A DNA stretch of 64,000 nucleotides. It comes from Moniliella sp. 'wahieum' (Eukaryota). The notes under the pieces are model-generated. The model ran no database searches. It saw only the letters and a list, made by a program, of their open reading frames with translations, and had not been told where the DNA came from. The stretch is from assembly GCA_003971905.1 (NCBI GenBank), contig RSEE01000028.1:124001-188000 (forward strand), given 5' to 3'. This document shows, piece by piece, positions 52,008-63,152 of this stretch. How positions within the stretch are numbered: the stretch's first letter is position 1; each line of letters begins with the position of its first letter. Position numbers and translations under genes: made by a program.

Positions 52008-52750
52008 TTAGAGGATAATGCATCCGCCACAGCAGCCAGAGTCGTGGGCGCCATCCTCCGCTTGCAAGGGCTGCATCCCACCCGCAATTCCAGCCCCCGC
52101 AGGCATCATCCCGGCCCCTCCCCCTACCCCTGCGCCGGCACCGGCACCGACGCCGGCGCTGGGCCCGTACCCGGCGCTCGCTGTTCCGCCCAAGCCGAGA
52201 TGCCCCCCCGTGAGCTCGCGGTTAAAACGACGAATCTCACGAACCAAATTGTAGAAGGCTTCATCCACATTGATCCGCTGCTTGGCACTCGTCTCGGTGA
52301 AGCGGCAGCCAAACATCTTGGCCAGTTCGCGGCCCTCATGAGATCCCACCTGACGCTCGTACTCCAAGTCGCACTTATTAGCCACCACGACAACGGGGAA
52401 GCGGTCCTTGTCCTTGACACGGAGGATCTGTTGGTGGAAGGTGCTGATCTCATCAAACGAGCTGCGACTGGTGATGGAGAAACCAGGAGAAAGCCCTCGC
52501 CGGTGCGCATATATTGCTCGCGCATGGCCGAGTACTCCTCCTGGCCAGCAGTGTCGAGCACGTCGAGGAGGGCGACCTCGTCGTCAATGACGCATTGCTT
52601 GCGGTACGAGTCCTCGATGGTGGGGTCGTACTCGTCGACAAAGTGGGACTGGATGAACTGGATGGTAAGTGCGCTCTTGCCAACGCCGCCGCCGCCGACG
52701 ACAACAAGCTTGTACTCGCGCAAGAACTGGGCGGGCATGACGCCAGACAT
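52008..52750 (-). CDS. RAS1: Ras1 small GTPase
   Basis: [50 protein letters not shown]-terminal GCCGGCIIL (palmitoylation cysteines plus CAAX). One frameshift near 52480; no intron seen. Confidence 0.97.
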
Positions 52751-55033
52751 GGTGGTGGATGGGGGGTGGCCGGACCAAGGGCGTGGGGGCGAATGCTGGG
52801 CTGCGCTGCGCTGCGCCTGGGCTCTGAGAGGGTCTGGGGCGCGGCAGAGCAGAACGCAGCGCAGGGGAACCCAAGCCCAGCAGGGCGCTGTGCCACCGGC
52901 GCCCCAGAGCCAAAGCGGCGCCGGCCAGCCACACACTGTCCCCGTGCCACATCCGCACCCTGCCGTTCCGTGATGAGTTTCGCGGTGTGTCAGATCCCGC
53001 CCCAGAGCCCAGTGCCCCTGTGCCTGCATCCGCGCCTACGCTTACCGTTAAACGTCCTTTGGGCGTTTTGGGGCCTTTGCGACGTTTTTTTAATCCCGAG
53101 GCCTCCACGAGCGTCACGACCTTAGGGTTGTAGCCGTCGACTAGCTTGCCTCGGCTCGGCGCTCAGACGCTCAGGCACCACCCGGCGAGGCTGGCTGGAA
53201 CCAGTCCACCACCTCGCTTTCCTTGCCCTCACGCAGTGTGGCTGCATCCCTGGCGGTGGCGTATGCCACATAGCTTCTAGGGCGCTACTTGACGCCCGGG
53301 TCCTAATGTGCCCCTGCCGCTCAATGAGAAAAGGAGCAGGGTCGCACTCGCGTTCTGAATATTGAAAGAGAGAATCGGCAAGTTGGCATATCTGCTGCTG
53401 ACCATTAATTGCATACAGGACCCTTAAGCCCCAAACCGGAGCGTCAGGGCATCCGGTGCGCGTGGGTACGCAGACAGCCCACTACACCACGGGGGTTATT
53501 CGCTTTCTTTTGCCACAGTCATCGAAGCCATCAGTCGTTGGGTAAGTACGGGCACGAGTTTGCGCCCATCTCAGGTCGCTCGCGCATGTGGTCAATTAGT
53601 ATCTCTGGCAGTGGCAATGACGGCTCGATAAGAGGTGCAGGCGAAATGACGGTCTGGGCGCGCGAAGCCAGTCTCCTATATATATACGCCTACATCCCAT
53701 TTTACCGTTTCTTTGTTGGCTCACCACACTGGCGGATGCACCACAAAAATGTTTAACCAAAGTGTGCACATATCTTGACTCACCATGTGTGCGCTCTCAG
53801 TTACTCTTTTGTGCCATCAGTGTGCTTTACTACGTTTACTGCTGCCCCCCTACTATGTGGTATCCCGCTATAAGCAGGCACAGAGCCTATACTACTGATG
53901 ACCAATTGGCTGGCAATTAAACATACAGAAGATTGAAGGTATTGAGAACAGGTGAGTGCATGGATGACATGCGTCTCAAGCGTCAAATTGCGTCGCTTCC
54001 ACGTTGATTCTTCTACATTTTGAGAGTATCGGATGTGTTGAGCCACACCGTCGGTGGCTCGTGTGTTTTGGCCAACGTCTCTTCAGTTTCTCCCTCAGGC
54101 CTGCGAGTTCCGTTTTGTTTTCTTGCTTCTATTTTACCTGTTCTGCAGCCTAGCCCGTGGAGGAGACTCTGGGGCTGGTTAATGTTCCTCTGTAGGTGTT
54201 GCTGATTGGTTTAGACCACTACCACCACTAGCAGAACGATTGCATCATGCTCGAGAACATCAGGATCTAGTAGATCTCATCAGGATGTATTGTGGATAGG
54301 GTAGAGGACAACAGAAGCGAACACAGGGGAGCACAATGGAAACCAAAAAGGGCGATGAGGACAACGCGTGTTTCTGTGCCACCGTCGCAAAGAAGGTCTG
54401 TCTAGGGATGCCATTTAAACTCCACGTCACGCGTCACGACAGAAAAGCGTACTTTCGACTATCTATAATCTCTAACACACGCCGGATGAGCAGGTCGGTT
54501 AAAGCGCAGCCTTTTTTTGTCCCGCCTTAGTAAGCTCTGTCAATGATATGGTTACAGTATATATATACGTCTCTCGATTCGCTGCACACACCATACACAT
54601 CACCGGCCCAAAAGATGTCTCAAGATAATGGCAAGATATCCTGGGGTTTGAGGGTCTAACCTCACGCGTCACGGTGAGGCCACGGAGAGATCTGAGATCT
54701 GATGCCTCAGAGGAGGCTGCGGGATGCTCCGGTCAAATAACCGGCACGGTGTGGTGTGGCTGAGTGATCTTTCGATCAGTTTTGTACCCTATAACATTGG
54801 CATGCATTATATAACAGCCTAGAGCGTCTGTTGTTTGCACGTTGGATGAAATGCAAGAAGCGATTTAAACCTCATGTTTTCAGCCCAAAAGTAATCAGTT
54901 ACTCACAAGTTACTATCGCTATAGCGTTCCTATATAGTAGCTTACTGCAGCTATTCCCCTGCCGGTTATCGAGAAGTTATCGTAACCGGTTACCGTAACC
55001 GTTACCTATTTTTTCGATCTATCCAAGTCGCCC

Positions 55034-55244
55034 TGTTGACCACCAGTGGTCTAGAGCCCATCGGCCTTCAGTGACACGTGGCCCGATCCACACAGTGCAC
55101 CGGGGCAGTGAGTTCCGACCCTTCCACGGGTTTCCACTGGCCTCCAGGCCAGGAGCCTATCAAGGCCCATAGCTCTAGCTCTCCTTAGCTCTTGAATGCC
55201 ATCTCCATCGACCATCGCCAGCATCGCTAGCTAGGCCTGTGACA
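55034..55244 (+). repeat. 5' LTR
   Basis: TGTTGACCACC...GGCCTGTGACA; identical by eye to 60090-60300. Confidence 0.97.
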
Positions 55245-55260
55245 GAGCTACAATCTGAAG
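55245..55260 (+). other. Putative primer-binding site (non-TGG, half-tRNA type)
   Basis: GAGCTACAATCTGAAG directly follows the 5' LTR. Its reverse complement CTTCAGA-TTGTAGC-TC resembles an anticodon arm with a GUA anticodon. Confidence 0.5.
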
Positions 55261-55391
55261 CACCCCACTGGCGCAAAGGATCAATACTCAGCACCACCAT
55301 CGGCGCCCACCGTCACCACCACCACCCCAACGCCACCATCGGCACCACACACCAACCAATTCAAAAAAAAACAAAGGAAAAATCAGCCACC

Positions 55392-56623
55392 ATGCCCCCC
55401 GAACTGGAAGAAAACACCCCTCCTCCCGAAGTCTCTGTCATCGAAGAGGCGCAGGACATCGACGAACCGACCACCACCCCTGTCTCCGACCCGACCTGGC
55501 AACAGGCCCTCACCGACGTCAGAGACAACCTCCTCGCAAGCACCCGCGCGTTCAAGCCCACCAGCGCTGACAATCTCCGCTCCACATGCCGCTCGTTCGC
55601 TACGGATGCACACACGGCGGCGTATGGACCGAAGAGCAAGAAAACACCGGGCGGAAAGGAAAATTGGATCTACACGCTCACCCTCGCGTTGGAGAAATAT
55701 GTATTGGCCGTTGAATTCACGAAGCCGCAAAACACCCGTGAGGCCCTTGCATCCGCGAGTGAGGACATGGCCGAGCTTCGCCACGCTGAGAAACGCGCGT
55801 CAAAAGAGATCGAGCGTACCAACGCGACGCGCAAGGACGCCTTCCGCGACCCCACCGAATATGTGCTCTGGGAGCCCTCCATCCTCAACATCCTGGACCG
55901 CATCCACCCCCCGCGAAGGACATCGTTCGCTCCGGTCCATCGTCACCACACTACGACTCGTCCCTCGATCTACGCCTCCAGAACCTTCTGTGGTCCCACC
56001 TCCCGAACGACGTTCAATCTGCCATTATTGCACAGGACAACGTTGACACGTCAGCTGACTTGCTCCGTGCCCTGCGAAACAAATACGGTACGGTCGACTG
56101 CAAGACGTATCATGAATTGTCCAGTCGCTTTCACCACTGCTACCAAAACCGGCGCAGCGGGAGCGCGTTCCTATCTGAAATGGGGACGCTCCGCAACCGG
56201 ATCAGCGCAACCACACCGATGTCGGACGAGCAATTCCGCCGTATCCTCGTCGGGGCCCTCCGCGACCCTGGTGACCGTCGCCGCCTAGAGCACATGACTC
56301 TGGCGGAGACAATGCAAGACGTGGAGAGAATCCCAGCGGACCCAGAGTACAGAATTCCGTACCGGGGCCGTCACCCCCGGACCGCCAACTCGGGCGCTGG
56401 CAAACACGACAGCGCGGGATCCCAGCAGCATAGCGGGGGTCCTCCTGCCGGTGCATCTCCCCGTAGCGGGGGTGCTCTTGCGAGAAAGCCGTCCGGCCAC
56501 ACCGGGGTTCCTTCGAACAACAAATGGCACCGCAACAGCTCCGCGCGAGCGCACATTGCCACCGAAGACGACGTCTCCGAAGGGGAGACCCTGTCTGTGG
56601 ACCTTGCCCTATCTGACAAATAG
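55392..56623 (+). CDS. gag: Copia gag ORF ending in TAG
   Basis: ATG 55392 in context GCCACCATG. One apparent missing C in the C-run at about 55907-55912 rejoins a helical capsid-like region (..SADLLRALRNKYG..FLSEM..LRNRI..MSDEQFRRILVGAL). Stop TAG at 56621-56623. Confidence 0.75.
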
Positions 56624-59600
56624 GAACTCGCGGGCAACCAGGACATCCAGTCTCGTCACGACTCGGGCGCGGATCCTAGCATCTGGAAGGATCTCAGGGT
56701 ATTCAAAACCCTCAAGCCCAGCAACCGCTCAATCGAAATCGCTGATGGAAAACATATTAAAGCCAGTGGACGCGGAACATGTAGCATCGGTATCAAGTGT
56801 ACCGACGGCAAATGTATCCATGTAGACCTACCCGGCAGTCTATACGTCCCCGGCATAGCAAGCAATCTCACGAGCGTAGCGCAAATAAGTGACGCAGGCC
56901 ACGCATCCTGGTTCGCCCCCCACCGAAAAGGTATCTGGTTAAATGACAAGCATGGCAAATATCACCAAATCGCGGATTCCTCATACAAGCTGAACATCGT
57001 CCCGAAACCGACACCCACAAACGAACACGCGGCCAAAGCTGCCGTCGCCACCCAACACACCGCAGCCAACACCATCGAGCACGTCATGTACGTTCACCAA
57101 CAGTACAACCACGCCGCGCTAGACCTACTCCCGACACTAACCGCCAACGCGCGAGCGAGCCTCCGCGTCAGCCCTGCCCAAATCCGACGCATCCGCCCCT
57201 TCTGGCATTGTCCCACCTGCACAAAAGCTCTGGCCAAAGCGCCCAGCCACCCTTCGCGCCACGGCCGCCGCATTTCGGAACGTCCTTTCGAAGTACTGCA
57301 CGCCGACGTAGTCGACCTCCCTCGCATCACTGGCATGGGACATGGATACGCCCTGGTCGCGGTTGATGACTGGAGCCGTTACACCTTCGCTGTTCCCCTA
57401 AAGACGAAAGGACAAGCCACGGCGGAGCTGAAAAAACTCATCACCCGCGAGCAACGCATCGGAAAGGACCGTCTGCTTCGCATCTTGAAGACAGACAATG
57501 CCCCCGAGCTCACCAGCGCACTCCGTCCGTTCCTTGAATCCGAAGGTATCACGACGGAAACCACCATACCAGGCCAAAGTCAATCAAATGGGGTGGCCGA
57601 GCGAGCCATCCAGGCAATCACCACACGCGCGCGCCAACTCATCATCGCCTCGGGCCTCCCGACATCAAACTGGTGGCAGGATGCCTTGCTGGCAGGGTGC
57701 TGGACGCACAACCTCATGCCACCGACATCTCCACGCCAGGGCACACAATCTCGGGCTGAGCTGTACAAGGGGTCACCCCCACCGCTGCCAATGCACGCCT
57801 TCGGATCCTTGGCGTACCTTCACCTGGCCCAGGACCAACGTGACCATAAGCTCAGTCCGCGGGCTGTCGAAGCCATGCTCGTCGGGTACGACGCAGGTCG
57901 AGGTACAAAGGGTTGGCGCTGGGCTGTGTACGACCCGTCCATGGGCACGTTCCGATCCCAATGGGCAAAACCATACAAGTGGACCCAGCGCCAATACCAC
58001 GAGGTTTTCCCCGACCGCTTTCCGCCTGACGTATCTCGCTTCCCCGCTCAACCCCTGCCTGACAGAACTATGACTGACACTGAAACCAAAAAGGGAGAAG
58101 AAAAAATGAACAAAATTGAAGTTGCAAATCCCAACACACCACCGAGAATCAACACTGATACTGACGCGACCATCGCAAGACAAAACGACACCCATCCAAC
58201 CACCCCCACCACCAGACGGTACCCCGCCCGGACCCACCAGCGCCGTTTTGACCTTGACTGGGCACAGCTCCCCGTAGCGGACGACCCTCATGATGGTGAC
58301 TTCCACGCACACGCTGCCGCGCTGCCTCCGGTTCCCCTCCCTGACGGTAGTCGTAGTCCTGCGATCGGCCTACGCTTCCCACTGCCCGACACTGCCCTGC
58401 CCGCGTACAGCGACGGTCTCCATCCGCCTGAATACAAGGCGATGATCGCCCTTAGCGAGCCAGGGCCGCACGAGCGCATCCAGCTCACCAAGGACGGAGT
58501 ACCTGTTGCACCCAAGACAATGAAGGGCCTCCAATCACACCCCTCATTCGAACCAGTGCTGGAGGCGATGCGCACGGAAATCGACACCCTAGCCCGCTAC
58601 GGCACATTCGAAGTCGTCACGCCCCCTCCAGACGCGCAGCTGCTGATTGGTCTGGCGCATCAACACCAAAACGGACGCGGACGGAAATTTCCTACGCTAC
58701 CGAGCCCGTCTCGTTGGCCGGGGGCCACCAGCAGGATGCTGACACATGGGGACAAACATTCGCCCCTGCCGTGCGCACTCCTGCCATCCTCAGCCTTATC
58801 GCCCTTGCTGGAAAGTTCGGCCTCCACCTCTTCACTGCTGATGTGCACTCTGCCTATTTGAACGCTCCCCTCACGGAAAAAGTGTACCTCCGCCCACCCC
58901 CATTCTTTCCCGAGGAAAAAGGCAAGGTCTGGCGTCTCCGGAAAAGCCTATATGGCCTCCACCAATCCGGCGCAAACTGGGCGGTATTCATCCGTGACTT
59001 GCTCCGCGGAGACATGGGTTTTGTACAATCTCTGGCTGAGCCGTGCTTGTTCATCCGACCCCGTAAAGGCGACACGGTCCTCCTTGCCGTGCACACCGAC
59101 GATCTTCTCATCGCCTGCACGTCTCACGCACGCTACGATTCCTTCCTCACTGAGATCAACACCCATATCGAGGTGCGGGGAAACGGCCCCCTACACTACC
59201 ATCTTGGCTGCCAGTACGACACCATAAACGGGAAACTGTACCTTAGCCAGCCAAAATTCATTGAGGAATCCATTGCCAAACATGAGGTTCCGCCACCCCT
59301 GGTTATGGGCCTCCCCCACCCCAGCAAGATGATCCCCGCGCGCACCGACCCCGAACCGCCCGCACTGCCCGCCGAGAGACGCGACTACAAGCCAAAGTAG
59401 GATCTGGGCTGTGGGCTGCCCGCATGTGCCGCCCTGATGCGCTGTTCGGCATCTCAGCTCTAAGCCGAGCAACTGCCGATCCCTCCAAGGCCCACCGCGC
59501 TGCGGCAACAAACTTCCTCCGCTACCTCTACGGTACCAAGGGCTACGGTCTCCGACTAACACCCGAGCCTAACGCACCCGCTCTCGCGCTATACACGGAT

Positions 59601-60095
59601 GCCGACCTGGCTGGAGACCCTGACCAATGGCGTTCCACGTCGGGATGCCTGCTTTTCGTCTACGGGGTTCCAGTGTCCTGGAGGAGCGTGCGTCAACCCA
59701 AGAGCGTCACCAACACTGCTGCGGCCGAATATACGGCGGGATATGAGGGCCTCATTGATGCGAACTACGTTAAAAACATCTTACTGGAGCTCGGTGCCAT
59801 CACCTCAGACGAGCCCATACACTGGTACTGCGACAACATGGCGGCACTTGCCTTGGCCGAAAAAGTGGGCAGCACGGGCAAACTACGTGAGCTGAACATC
59901 CGGTACCACAACGTACGCCAGCATGTCGACTCGGGCGAAGTCAAAATCGCGCACATTGCTGGAAACGAGAACCCGGCCGACATCCTCACCAAACCAGCCA
60001 CTAAGGTCTCACTCCTGGCCAACTTGCCTCGCCTCAAGCTTGAGGACGTTACAACCTTCCATCGTACTGAGACCTCTGGCCAGCGGGGGTGTTGA
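56624..60095 (+). CDS. pol: Copia pol (protease, integrase, reverse transcriptase, RNase H)
   Basis: Protease HDSGA...IADG....ASGRG...LYVPGIASNLTSV. Integrase HQQYNH/CPTC, HADVVD..VDDWSRY..KTDN..SNGVAERA. RT ARLV..GHQQ, ADVHSAYLN, LRKSLYGLHQSG..W, HTDDLL. RNase H YTDADLAG, AEY, CDN, NPADILTK. Stop lies inside the 3' LTR; frameshifts near 58650-58715 and 59390. Confidence 0.95.
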
Positions 60096-60300
60096 CCACC
60101 AGTGGTCTAGAGCCCATCGGCCTTCAGTGACACGTGGCCCGATCCACACAGTGCACCGGGGCAGTGAGTTCCGACCCTTCCACGGGTTTCCACTGGCCTC
60201 CAGGCCAGGAGCCTATCAAGGCCCATAGCTCTAGCTCTCCTTAGCTCTTGAATGCCATCTCCATCGACCATCGCCAGCATCGCTAGCTAGGCCTGTGACA
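60090..60300 (+). repeat. 3' LTR (preceded by a short G-rich PPT, CAGCGGGGG)
   Basis: Identical to the 5' LTR and followed by TSD CGCCC. Confidence 0.97.
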
Positions 60301-61622
60301 CGCCCGAACGGATCCGAACAGTGGCAGTACGACGGTGACGCGGTGACGGGGGTTAAAATTTGGTTCTCGTGATGCATGATGCGTTATGAGATAGATCGAT
60401 GGGGCTCTTCTCCATGTTGGGAGGAGGCTTGGGGATCCACTGGGGAGCTTCTGTGGGGTTTAAGTGACGTGTGTGATGTAACACCTATCTCCTGCGCCAC
60501 ACATTATTGCACTTCATTTGTCGCAATGTGGTGTGCGGGGACATGGGGACAACGGTAGCCGGTAGGCGCCGACTACTCAGGCAGGGTATGGAGTACTGGG
60601 GTACTGCGGAGAGGAGAGTGCTGGCTTACCGGTTACCAGTTACCAGTTACCAGTTACTGAGGCTACGATCTTAGTGTGGCGCGCGGCTGAGAGAGATGAG
60701 CCTCATCGCTGAGCAAGGACTAGGTTAATTTCGAAGAGGCGATTGATCGAGGTGATCAAGGTGATCGATGATCGGGCATCATGCACATCATGCATCATGC
60801 ATGCATCGTGTGGCTGGCTGGTTGGGTGCGGGGCGCGGCTGCTGATACATGATGCATGATGCATTATGCATGATGACTGATGCTGACGCTGAACCCCTGC
60901 TGCGTGTCCGATTCCCCCGACGACGGCACTGCACGGCGCTGCCCGACGGGAGCCAATCATTGGCACACTCAGCCACTCGGCCAGCTGAGATCGGAGAGTG
61001 TCATCGACATCGATCATCATCTCGATCATCGACCACCAATCGTCTACACCTTCTGTCCTTCCGCGGCACCACCGGCACCAGCCAGCTACCCCGGAGAACT
61101 TCAGTCTAGAAGGAACATTGCCCTACGCCACTTGCAACATTCAGCTGGCGATCCCTTTAGCCCCGGTGTGGCGTACGTCTCAGAGAGGCCCCACCTGCCA
61201 CATCACCCTCCCACTCCATCAGTCTCCGCCCCACCCCACGCCCCCTCTCCGATCGGCCAGACACGCCCCTCTCCCTATCGCCTCTCTCCCTCTCCCCCAT
61301 CTCCTGCCCCTTCCGTCCCCGCCAGCCAGCCACACCTCACTTCTCACACCTCCCAAAACCCAATCTGGACCCCCAGCAGCACAGTCACCAGTCACCACCA
61401 GCCACCTCTCCCCTGCTCGCCTCCGTACTCTCCCAACTCTGGAAGATCATCGGTATACACACTATACCCATCCATGCGGTATACACTCTATACCCGTCCA
61501 TGCGCTGGGGCCACCCTCCCCCCCTCATATAAGCCCTGCCCTCTACTCGCTCTCTCTTTACTGTTGCTGCCTTCATCTCCCCCGCACCTTTCCCCTCTCC
61601 AGACGGCAGCAAGTGCCTAGCC

Positions 61623-63152
61623 ATGATGGCAACCACCGTCTCCACAGCCCCCTCCGCTATCCTTCGTCCATCGCTCGTGCGCAGAGCACTACACAAGCGC
61701 AGCGCCAGCCTCGGCGCCCTCATCAGTACCGACAGCTCTTCTTTCGCCTCTTCCTCCGCTGCTGCGTCCACTGCCGTTTGTACGAATGCTGCGATGTCCG
61801 CCATCGCATCTGCCTCCAACCAACAACCCGCACGCACTTCGGATTCTGCTCCGACAATCACTCCGTCTTCCTCCAAAGAAGAGGGCCGCAGACCCCGTGA
61901 CCCTTACTATGGCTTTGCTTGTACGTCCCTATTGATTCCAGAATGTAGAATACCGCGCTCTGAACGTCTGAAGAAGACGCGTCGTCGCGACCAAAGAGAC
62001 TAATCTTACCTACACTTTTGGATGACCCTGTGCAGACATGTCGGGTTTGTCTGAGCGGTTTATCACCCTTCTTTTTGGCTGCTCCGGCCCAAGTTGTGAT
62101 AGGCCGCCTGCAACACAGGAACCGACATCGGCAACACAGTTGGCCACCCCACCACCGCTGGCGTCCTTTGTTGCCTATGCGCTGTACCGGACTCGTCTGC
62201 CAAACGAATAAGCTACCAAGCTCTTTACCTCCTAATGCGGCTTAAGCAGTACTTCCCCAATGCGCGCGGAAGCAATGGACACTCTTTGTACATCACTGCA
62301 CTCATGCTGGCAAGCAAGTCTCTGTGCGATGACACCTACAGCAACAAGAGTTGGACCATCGTCGGTCAGGCCTTTCTCTCTCGCTCAGCTCAACCACATG
62401 GAGCGCGAACTGCTTGGCTTTCTCAATTACAACGTCAACGTTGACCCCCCGAGTTGCGTGCCTTACCAACGCAATCACCAACCCCACCATTGATTTGGCG
62501 CAATACCTCTACTTTGCTTGCATTGCGCATCAACCGTCCCTCTGCCAATACCACTCTCTGTGCCTCACCCTCCGCCCGGAACCCTACCAGGGCAGCATAC
62601 GAGCCCCATTGCCTCCCAGCGGATTCCCGTCACAGCTTGGACCATAACCCAGGCAGGGAAGGGCATGTCTCAATTCAAACTGAGACGGCTTCGTCTGGAG
62701 CAGCGCGAAGAACCTCTGCTGAATCCTGGGTAATGGAAGGGCAGGGGCCTCAACGAGGTGCATGCCTTTCCACGCTCTCGGCCACGTCGAACCAAGAAAC
62801 TGTGCCCGTCCGGGGGGTAGACAAAATCCCTTCCGTCGCCATGTCAACAGTGCGCTGTGAACCGTATCCAGTGACGACTGCACCCTACCCTATGCCGACA
62901 CACAACATCCCTTGGTCCACAAGAACAAGTGATGAGTTAAGCATCTCGGATATGCCGCGTCTTTCGTGCTCCTCGGAGGCTAGCACAACATCGGAATTGA
63001 CCGCGCTCGAGATGCCATCGTCTCCGTCCTCTTCGTGGAATCACGGAATGGTTCCAGAGCTACAGGGGCCACAGGACACATGCGTGGATGCCACCCCCCA
63101 CTCGCACAATGCGTTCCGCCAAGTGGCCACGAGGCTTGTCCCTGCCTCTTGA
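61623..63152 (+). CDS. Pho85-type (Pcl/Clg1/Pho80-like) cyclin
   Basis: RDPYYGFA|YMSGLSERFI with intron 61921-62035 (GTACGT...ACTAAT...CAG). Cyclin box: LASFVAYALYRTRL, LLMRLKQYFPNARGSNGHSLYITALMLASKSLCDDTYSNKSWTIV, LNHMERELLGFLNY. Disordered C-tail. Confidence 0.88.

Follow-up and report, generated by a model that had tools for sequence, protein, structure and literature searches.

How does a retrotransposon translate pol when a stop codon closes gag within a shared frame? This question is raised by a Ty1/copia element at positions 55034–60300 of a 64,000-nt stretch of the Moniliella sp. 'wahieum' genome (GenBank assembly GCA_003971905.1, contig RSEE01000028.1, positions 124,001–188,000 of the forward strand; hereafter the window). 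Its gag end reads GAC AAA TAG, with the TAG at 56621–56623, and the frame continues unchanged across the stop into an aspartic protease whose catalytic D is the 13th codon after it, in an element with identical long terminal repeats (LTRs); an initial sequence-only reading of the stretch had described this arrangement correctly. In the Candida element Tca2, the junction alone did not suffice to get past such a stop. From comparisons across the genome, we put at roughly 75% the probability that this recently active family sets its Gag:Gag-Pol ratio by programmed readthrough of one UAG.

The gag frame occupies 55392–56620 on the plus strand (410 codons where open), and pol is stop-free for 745 codons from 56624, a part that contains the protease, the integrase core, and an SH3-like domain (PF25597). 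The first in-frame ATG after the stop is codon 155 (57086–57088), past the whole protease. Six further ATGs lie between the stop and 57086, all out of frame, so the initial claim that no in-frame ATG is available there is correct. The element thus shows a gag-stop-pol layout, with one inherited in-frame stop and no usable AUG before the protease.

The window copy contains three more frame breaks, near 55906 (within gag), 58652, and 59387, so the assembly needed checking. The genome contains 20 full-length copies at 99–100% identity; each has between 1 and 56 indel columns, and the other frame breaks differ between copies. Alignment of these copies, proposed in the sequence-only reading, recovered TAG GAACTCG in all 20, within an invariant block of 31 nt before the TAG and 62 nt from its T onward. 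Because 19 of the 20 are also flanked by their own matching 5-bp target-site duplications, the stop was already present when the element spread. At locus L017 the flanks do not match, and the left flank equals the L016 duplication, indicating recombination or mis-assembly. Contigs built from short reads in two other studies span the junction with no indel near the TAG. A 410-aa Gag (P0011) ending in LALSDK, with pol called separately, comes from a 5089-nt contig that we take, from its equal length, to be one of these (X1, ~96% identical). It places a stop at this codon without showing which of the three it is. The base-calling error named earlier as a possible refutation was not seen. The three breaks of the window copy are most likely long-read errors, as they are not common to all copies and short-read contigs show small indels there. 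Single-copy pol frames are open for 1139–1160 codons. The TAG is neither decay nor a base-call error, and the stop, lying where gag meets the protease, is inherited and has to be bypassed.

Protease matches (at least 119) and reverse transcriptase (RT) matches (at least 150) were collected, and representatives of each score class were examined. A genome-wide count of TAGGAACTCG with the protease motif after it gives 79 occurrences, versus 0 for a reversed control. These occurrences split into 20 in the family of the window element (family A), 56 in family B, 2 in C, and 1 in E, of which a second copy was found later, beyond this count. The same TAG GAACTCG also stands in 7 of 10 family D copies and in one copy of H, so that six families (A, B, C, D, E, and H) carry it before the protease. 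In other junction types the TAG is followed by GACGGCG (K, 4 copies), GGATACG (K', 1 copy), GACAGCG (F0, 5 copies), or, among the 5 copies of G, by GGGTGCG in three and an indel-altered form in two. Single copies carry a long gag frame into the TAG in A (481 codons), B (490), C (434), F0 (426), and G (646). RT identity is 68–69% among A, B, and C, and 30–38% between these and D or H. An RT tree groups A+B+C (99/98) and F+K+K' (100/99) and joins the two groups (98/96); D, H, I, and G form separate long branches at 23–41% identity, and family E was without an RT for the tree. The ten junction types thus represent about five deep lineages rather than ten independent ones. The closest database pol proteins (P0015, P0016/P0164, and P0020) are called from a Met that lies within the protease or shortly ahead of it, as would fit a break at the junction.

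A metagenome scan yielded only distant copia, 23–37% identical, and in the two gypsy families examined (2 loci each) the motif is not at the gag/pol border. An apparent stop-ELG in gypsy locus L281 proved to be the edge of a truncated copy. In single, error-prone copies of two gypsy families (L282, minus strand, and L280) gag ends shortly before the protease with pol apparently in another frame, and one such gag end reads AAC TAG GGG.

The ten junction types share UAG-G-R-N-N-N-C-G-S-G. In all ten, +4 is G, +9 is C, +10 and +12 are G, +5 is a purine, and +11 is C or G, and an A at −2 (56619 in the window) is kept in 9 of 10. In the window copy the context after the stop is GAACTCGCGG (56624–56633), the candidate readthrough signal. 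The second encoded residue after the stop varies (L, G, Y, S, or C) across the ten types. Synonymous sites between the families are saturated, with the same codon at only 25–44% of identical residues and one codon in five families at 1 of 36 invariant RT columns. In the six families with TAG GAACTCG, the stop, Glu, and Leu codons are all identical; judged by codon usage, such agreement has a chance probability of 2e-4 with six independent families, or 0.023 when only three deep lineages are counted. A held-out family, L100, sister to G and unused in deriving the pattern, fits it 47 codons before the protease, in a copy whose frame is shifted. By comparison, the pattern follows 1 of 905 TAGs in window host DNA and is found at none of the 48 distant copia loci, out of 80 taken, whose protease could be located. 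Genome-wide, the loose motif occurs 205 times versus 218 for the reversed control and is therefore informative at the junction only; among 20 of its matches picked by eye, 8 are decayed copia and the rest have no readthrough-like gene context. Two motif matches in viral contigs lack an open frame and were taken as chance. By these comparisons, the junction is under nucleotide-level selection across distant families. The preference of the initial reading for programmed recoding over random decay holds up, given 20/20 copies and the same site across distant families, and in a ten-letter context fixed over such distances evolution marks the letters that matter.

Readthrough explains at once the fixed UAG, the kept frame, the conserved 3′ letters, and the A at −2. 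Most ribosomes would stop at the UAG and release the 410-aa Gag, while for a small share a near-cognate tRNA would insert an amino acid and translation would enter the protease, the integrase, and the reverse transcriptase; we infer this step, its rate, the inserted residue, and any role of structure. The signal would consist of the A at −2 plus G-R-N-N-N-C-G-S-G at +4 to +12, the latter positioned in the ribosomal mRNA entry channel, and in several sister families the C-G-S-G letters would double as the 5′ arm of a hairpin. UAG-G is the described type III context, and AA at −2/−1 favours readthrough in yeast (PMC13517186; bioRxiv 2022.12.06.519325). More tentatively, and at somewhat less than even odds, A-N-UAG-G-R-N-N-N-C-G-S-G may be an undescribed readthrough signal of fungal ribosomes, acting mainly as primary sequence out to +12, kept or reached repeatedly by ~30%-identical copia lineages in one host, and needing no pseudoknot in its GAACUCG form. 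A changed genetic code is excluded by host kinase matches with an internal stop (TAG in 7 of 122, TGA in 12, TAA in 8), which show no TAG excess. No suppressor tRNA with a CUA anticodon was seen in the 15 matches read out of 63 scored (2133 candidates), with three uncalled. About 40 tRNA matches have equal score, and the one read (L121) is tRNA-Ala(AGC).

Several observations weigh against readthrough. No Gag-Pol product or reporter signal was seen, and all families are known from one error-prone assembly. In every copy of D and H read, the gag frame is broken shortly before the TAG, and a break of the gag or protease frame lies near it in the copies read of D, H, and L100. Families I and J, excluded from the junction-type count, have TAG GAT as read with the rest of the pattern absent, in one copy each with a shifted protease frame. 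Tca2, put forward in the sequence-only reading as a precedent, is one for the layout, but in S. cerevisiae its 300-nt junction gave 0.3% readthrough, equal to background (PMC2194720). The F group has 28 copies, of which 18 lack ~81 nt including the stop (judged by eye), 5 carry a sense codon instead, and 5 retain the TAG, such that the stop-less form outnumbers its stop-bearing sister by 18 to 5; in family D, the junction is missing in frame from 3 of 10 copies.

RNA structure adds to these points. Downstream structure is usually needed at type III sites (PMC13517186), and that no fold above shuffles was found in family A tells against readthrough there. Local folding of family A shows no gain over shuffles (z −0.49 for 120 nt and +1.00 for 60 nt). 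The small AGTC-N7-GACT hairpin reported earlier is present at 56649–56663, but its region folds no better than shuffles and other families lack it. No pseudoknot was found in family A with folding that was not pseudoknot-capable. The best long-range partners predicted for +4 to +21 fall in a different place in each family and none is shared with A: codons for integrase DNAPEL match in B, a partner at similar distance is found in C, and neither is in the top three of A. Folding predicts a hairpin that draws on C-G-S-G in K, K', F0, D, H, J, and G, with weak predictions for B, C, and E, but it is significant against shuffles in G alone (z −4.6). A 6-bp stem is kept in 5 of 6 A/B/C/E sequences and broken in A. 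The covariation sought in the junction fold is absent, with no two-sided change in this stem or in the 7-bp stem of 13 K-like copies. The structure-based signal suspected at the outset thus found no support; the signal looks like primary sequence at +4 to +12, perhaps with a short hairpin. In family G (L065:2786–2880), UAG GGG UGC is directly followed by a long stem-loop, which we take to resemble a tombusvirid-type readthrough element.

The stop-less relatives partly realise a result that the initial reading would have counted against recoding, a sense codon in other copies or relatives. A sense codon replaces the stop, or the junction is missing, in part of the relatives, although the TAG is retained in those closest to them. 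Loss of the stop is the simpler reading for F, because the TAG survives in K and K' and most of the context is still present in the sense-codon copies. Derivatives without the stop originated more than once, either through an in-frame deletion or through a sense codon, and those of F and D have spread, whether on their own or with help. They are found at loci L061, L062, L213–L232, L075, and L078 (F) and at L085, L103, and L107 (D). A G-run in pol breaks most F copies, stop-bearing and stop-less alike, and is probably a recurring read error. The variants at +5 to +8, the hairpin and hairpin-less families, and the stop-less derivatives form a natural comparison set.

Among other explanations, the one that survives best, though it is unlikely, is a non-canonical bypass like that of Tca2, in which an internal promoter, re-initiation, remote sequences, or a host factor supplies pol and the conserved letters serve that step. 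Tca2 is the only tested copia of this layout, with a weak promoter at its junction and no readthrough from the junction alone (PMC2194720). That no stimulator structure was found in family A, and the in-frame ATG six codons after the stop in family B, also fit. Re-initiation nevertheless cannot account for A, where the protease precedes the first Met, and a Met is in place only in B: the first in-frame ATG of D is codon 32, beyond the catalytic D, and C, E, and K have no Met between the stop and the catalytic D. Moreover, A, B, C, F0, and G maintain the frame across the stop, which initiation elsewhere would not require.

Splicing is more doubtful still. Here TAG|G would act as a 3′ splice site, and a minor spliced RNA would join gag to pol minus the stop. 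The stop is always TAG, the next letter is always G, and branch-like sites lie upstream (CTGAC 8 nt away in A and B, CTGAT 11 nt away in D), CTGAC and CTAAC being likely branch sites in host intron candidates. However, C, E, H, K, K', and I have no YTRAY within 45 nt, the CTGAC is altered in a family B variant, and in D a CAG immediately precedes the TAG. Branch-to-AG spacing would be 7 nt, versus 11–24 nt in the few, unverified host intron candidates, and the conserved letters sit on the exon side of TAG|G. None of the GT sites in the open gag frames is a consensus-like phase-0 donor (0/15 in A, 0/14 in B, and 0/4 in C, whose gag frame was read from an internal Met only). The junction therefore has neither the conserved branch site nor the in-phase donor expected of a host 3′ splice site. 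Splicing and internal promoters are formal routes all the same, and the original statement that protease can be made only by reading through the stop was too strong; readthrough is the best-supported route.

A ribosomal hop or paired frameshifts over the stop would be favoured by alike flanking codons, as found in E (GAA..GAA) and in A and H (AAA..GAA), but these codons are unmatched in B, C, D, F0, and G, making such an event very improbable. Hardly any weight is left for the stop being a sequencing error, a nonsense mutation of a family that is non-autonomous, or a codon reassigned to an amino acid. The indel-rich assembly and a G-run difference recurring in family F might suggest such a reading, but it is countered by the 20/20 copies, a short-read contig obtained independently, the shared site of ~30%-identical lineages, the open pol frames, and the host kinases.

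Programmed UAG readthrough in this element would resemble several described systems in part. Tca2 (pCal, a Ty1/copia element of Candida albicans) has gag and pol in one frame with a single stop, and makes pol from the gag-pol RNA (PMC2194720). Like Tca2, the element described here is a copia whose single frame is split by one stop followed by purine-rich letters. In Tca2 the stop is a UGA, followed by AAAACAGG and a predicted pseudoknot (PMC4139406); here it is a UAG followed by GAACUCG, with no pseudoknot found. Tca2 is also one family, whereas about five deep lineages share a context here.

With type III sites (MoMLV UAG GGA GGU CAG with a pseudoknot, WDSV UAG GAU CCA, and CIRV UAG GGA GGC), the junction shares a UAG then G where gag meets the protease, as well as acidic residues immediately ahead of the stop. 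The type III hexamers listed in PMC13517186 are UAGGGV, UAGGUA, and UAGGAU. K' and L100 (UAG GGA) and G (UAG GGG) carry listed hexamers, but the UAGGAA of this element is unlisted and shares only the +4 G. The type III definition, as given in that text, has no fixed +9 C, +10 G, or +12 G, and the type III pseudoknot at +12 and long-range partner were both absent from our predictions, made with folding that was not pseudoknot-capable. Neither the type I (UAG CAR YYA) nor the type II (UGA CGG/CUA) motif is present at the junction, in agreement with the earlier remark that the 3′ context is not CARYYA.

Tj1, Tosmo1-3, and Tcry1 of fission yeasts are Ty3/gypsy elements with an in-frame gag/pol stop, no pol AUG, and a short context kept across families, and transposition of Tj1 requires the stop (PMC4600332 and bioRxiv 2022.12.06.519325). 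The junction shares with this group the in-frame stop between gag and pol, the lack of a pol AUG, and a short nucleotide context common to families. It differs in being copia rather than gypsy, in having a UAG in another context rather than UGA in the type II-like GAA-UGA-CU, and in its natural stop-less derivatives. In metagenome copia loci L133:2723–2729 and L134:106–112, an in-frame GAA TGA CTAG precedes the protease by 59 codons; this type II-like site has its GAA-TGA-CT core in common with Tj1, and gag-stop copia are thus not confined to this host.

The gag-stop-pol layout was already known from Tca2 and Tj1, and the shared UAG context appears to be new. A literature search, with most subscription papers outside its scope, returned nothing that deals with the motif or with copia elements of this fungal group split by a UAG. 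Gao et al. 2003, the main gag/pol junction survey, may list further cases. If readthrough is correct, the junction would add one more UAG context to a short known list, and gag-stop-pol would be the main strategy of a whole copia radiation. Annotators should accordingly not take a stop ahead of the protease as proof that an element is dead.

The remaining features are those of a Ty1/copia element, with protease-integrase-reverse transcriptase order, TG..CA LTRs, a 5-bp duplication, a primer-binding site, and a polypurine tract. The target-site duplication CGCCC (55029–55033 and 60301–60305) flanks a 5′ LTR of 211 nt (55034–55244, plus strand) and the 3′ LTR equal to it (60090–60300, plus strand). 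Other features are also on the plus strand. The Pfam match of gag is weak (PF17241, E 0.06). The protease, with its DSGA motif and catalytic D codon at 56660–56662, extends over 56660–56899 (PF22936, E 1e-11), and a PDB search with it gave no real match. Downstream are the integrase core at 57278–57577 (PF00665, E 1.7e-9) and a copia-type reverse transcriptase matched at 58720–59286 (PF07727, E 2.2e-30), the break near 58652 lying before this stretch. The pol end (59286–60095), which contains the break near 59387 and terminates at a TGA inside the 3′ LTR, is labelled RNase H by position, and a Pfam search of this piece returned no match. A purine-rich tract (60080–60089) precedes the 3′ LTR.

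The primer-binding site (55245–55258) complements the anticodon arm of the spliced host tRNA-Tyr(GUA) at 13 of 14 letters in a by-eye match, which suggests priming by a tRNA half. The match spans the intron position of the tRNA (tRNA locus L233:1494–1582), the same tRNA letters are present in 30 of 31 pattern matches, and families B, F, and K have a similar site. Among tRNAs known to read UAG as near-cognates is tRNA-Tyr.

Beside the element, neighbouring host genes at 52124–53035 (minus strand) and 61533–62500 (plus strand), whose translations suggest a Ras gene and a possible cyclin-like gene, also shift frame, which fits an indel-rich assembly. Elsewhere in the genome, AGTAGGGTTTCGGGG recurs near contig ends (C2:9585, C10:1002031, C12:986660, C14:3426, C24:757765, C30:1913, and C33:9590) and is possibly a subtelomeric repeat.

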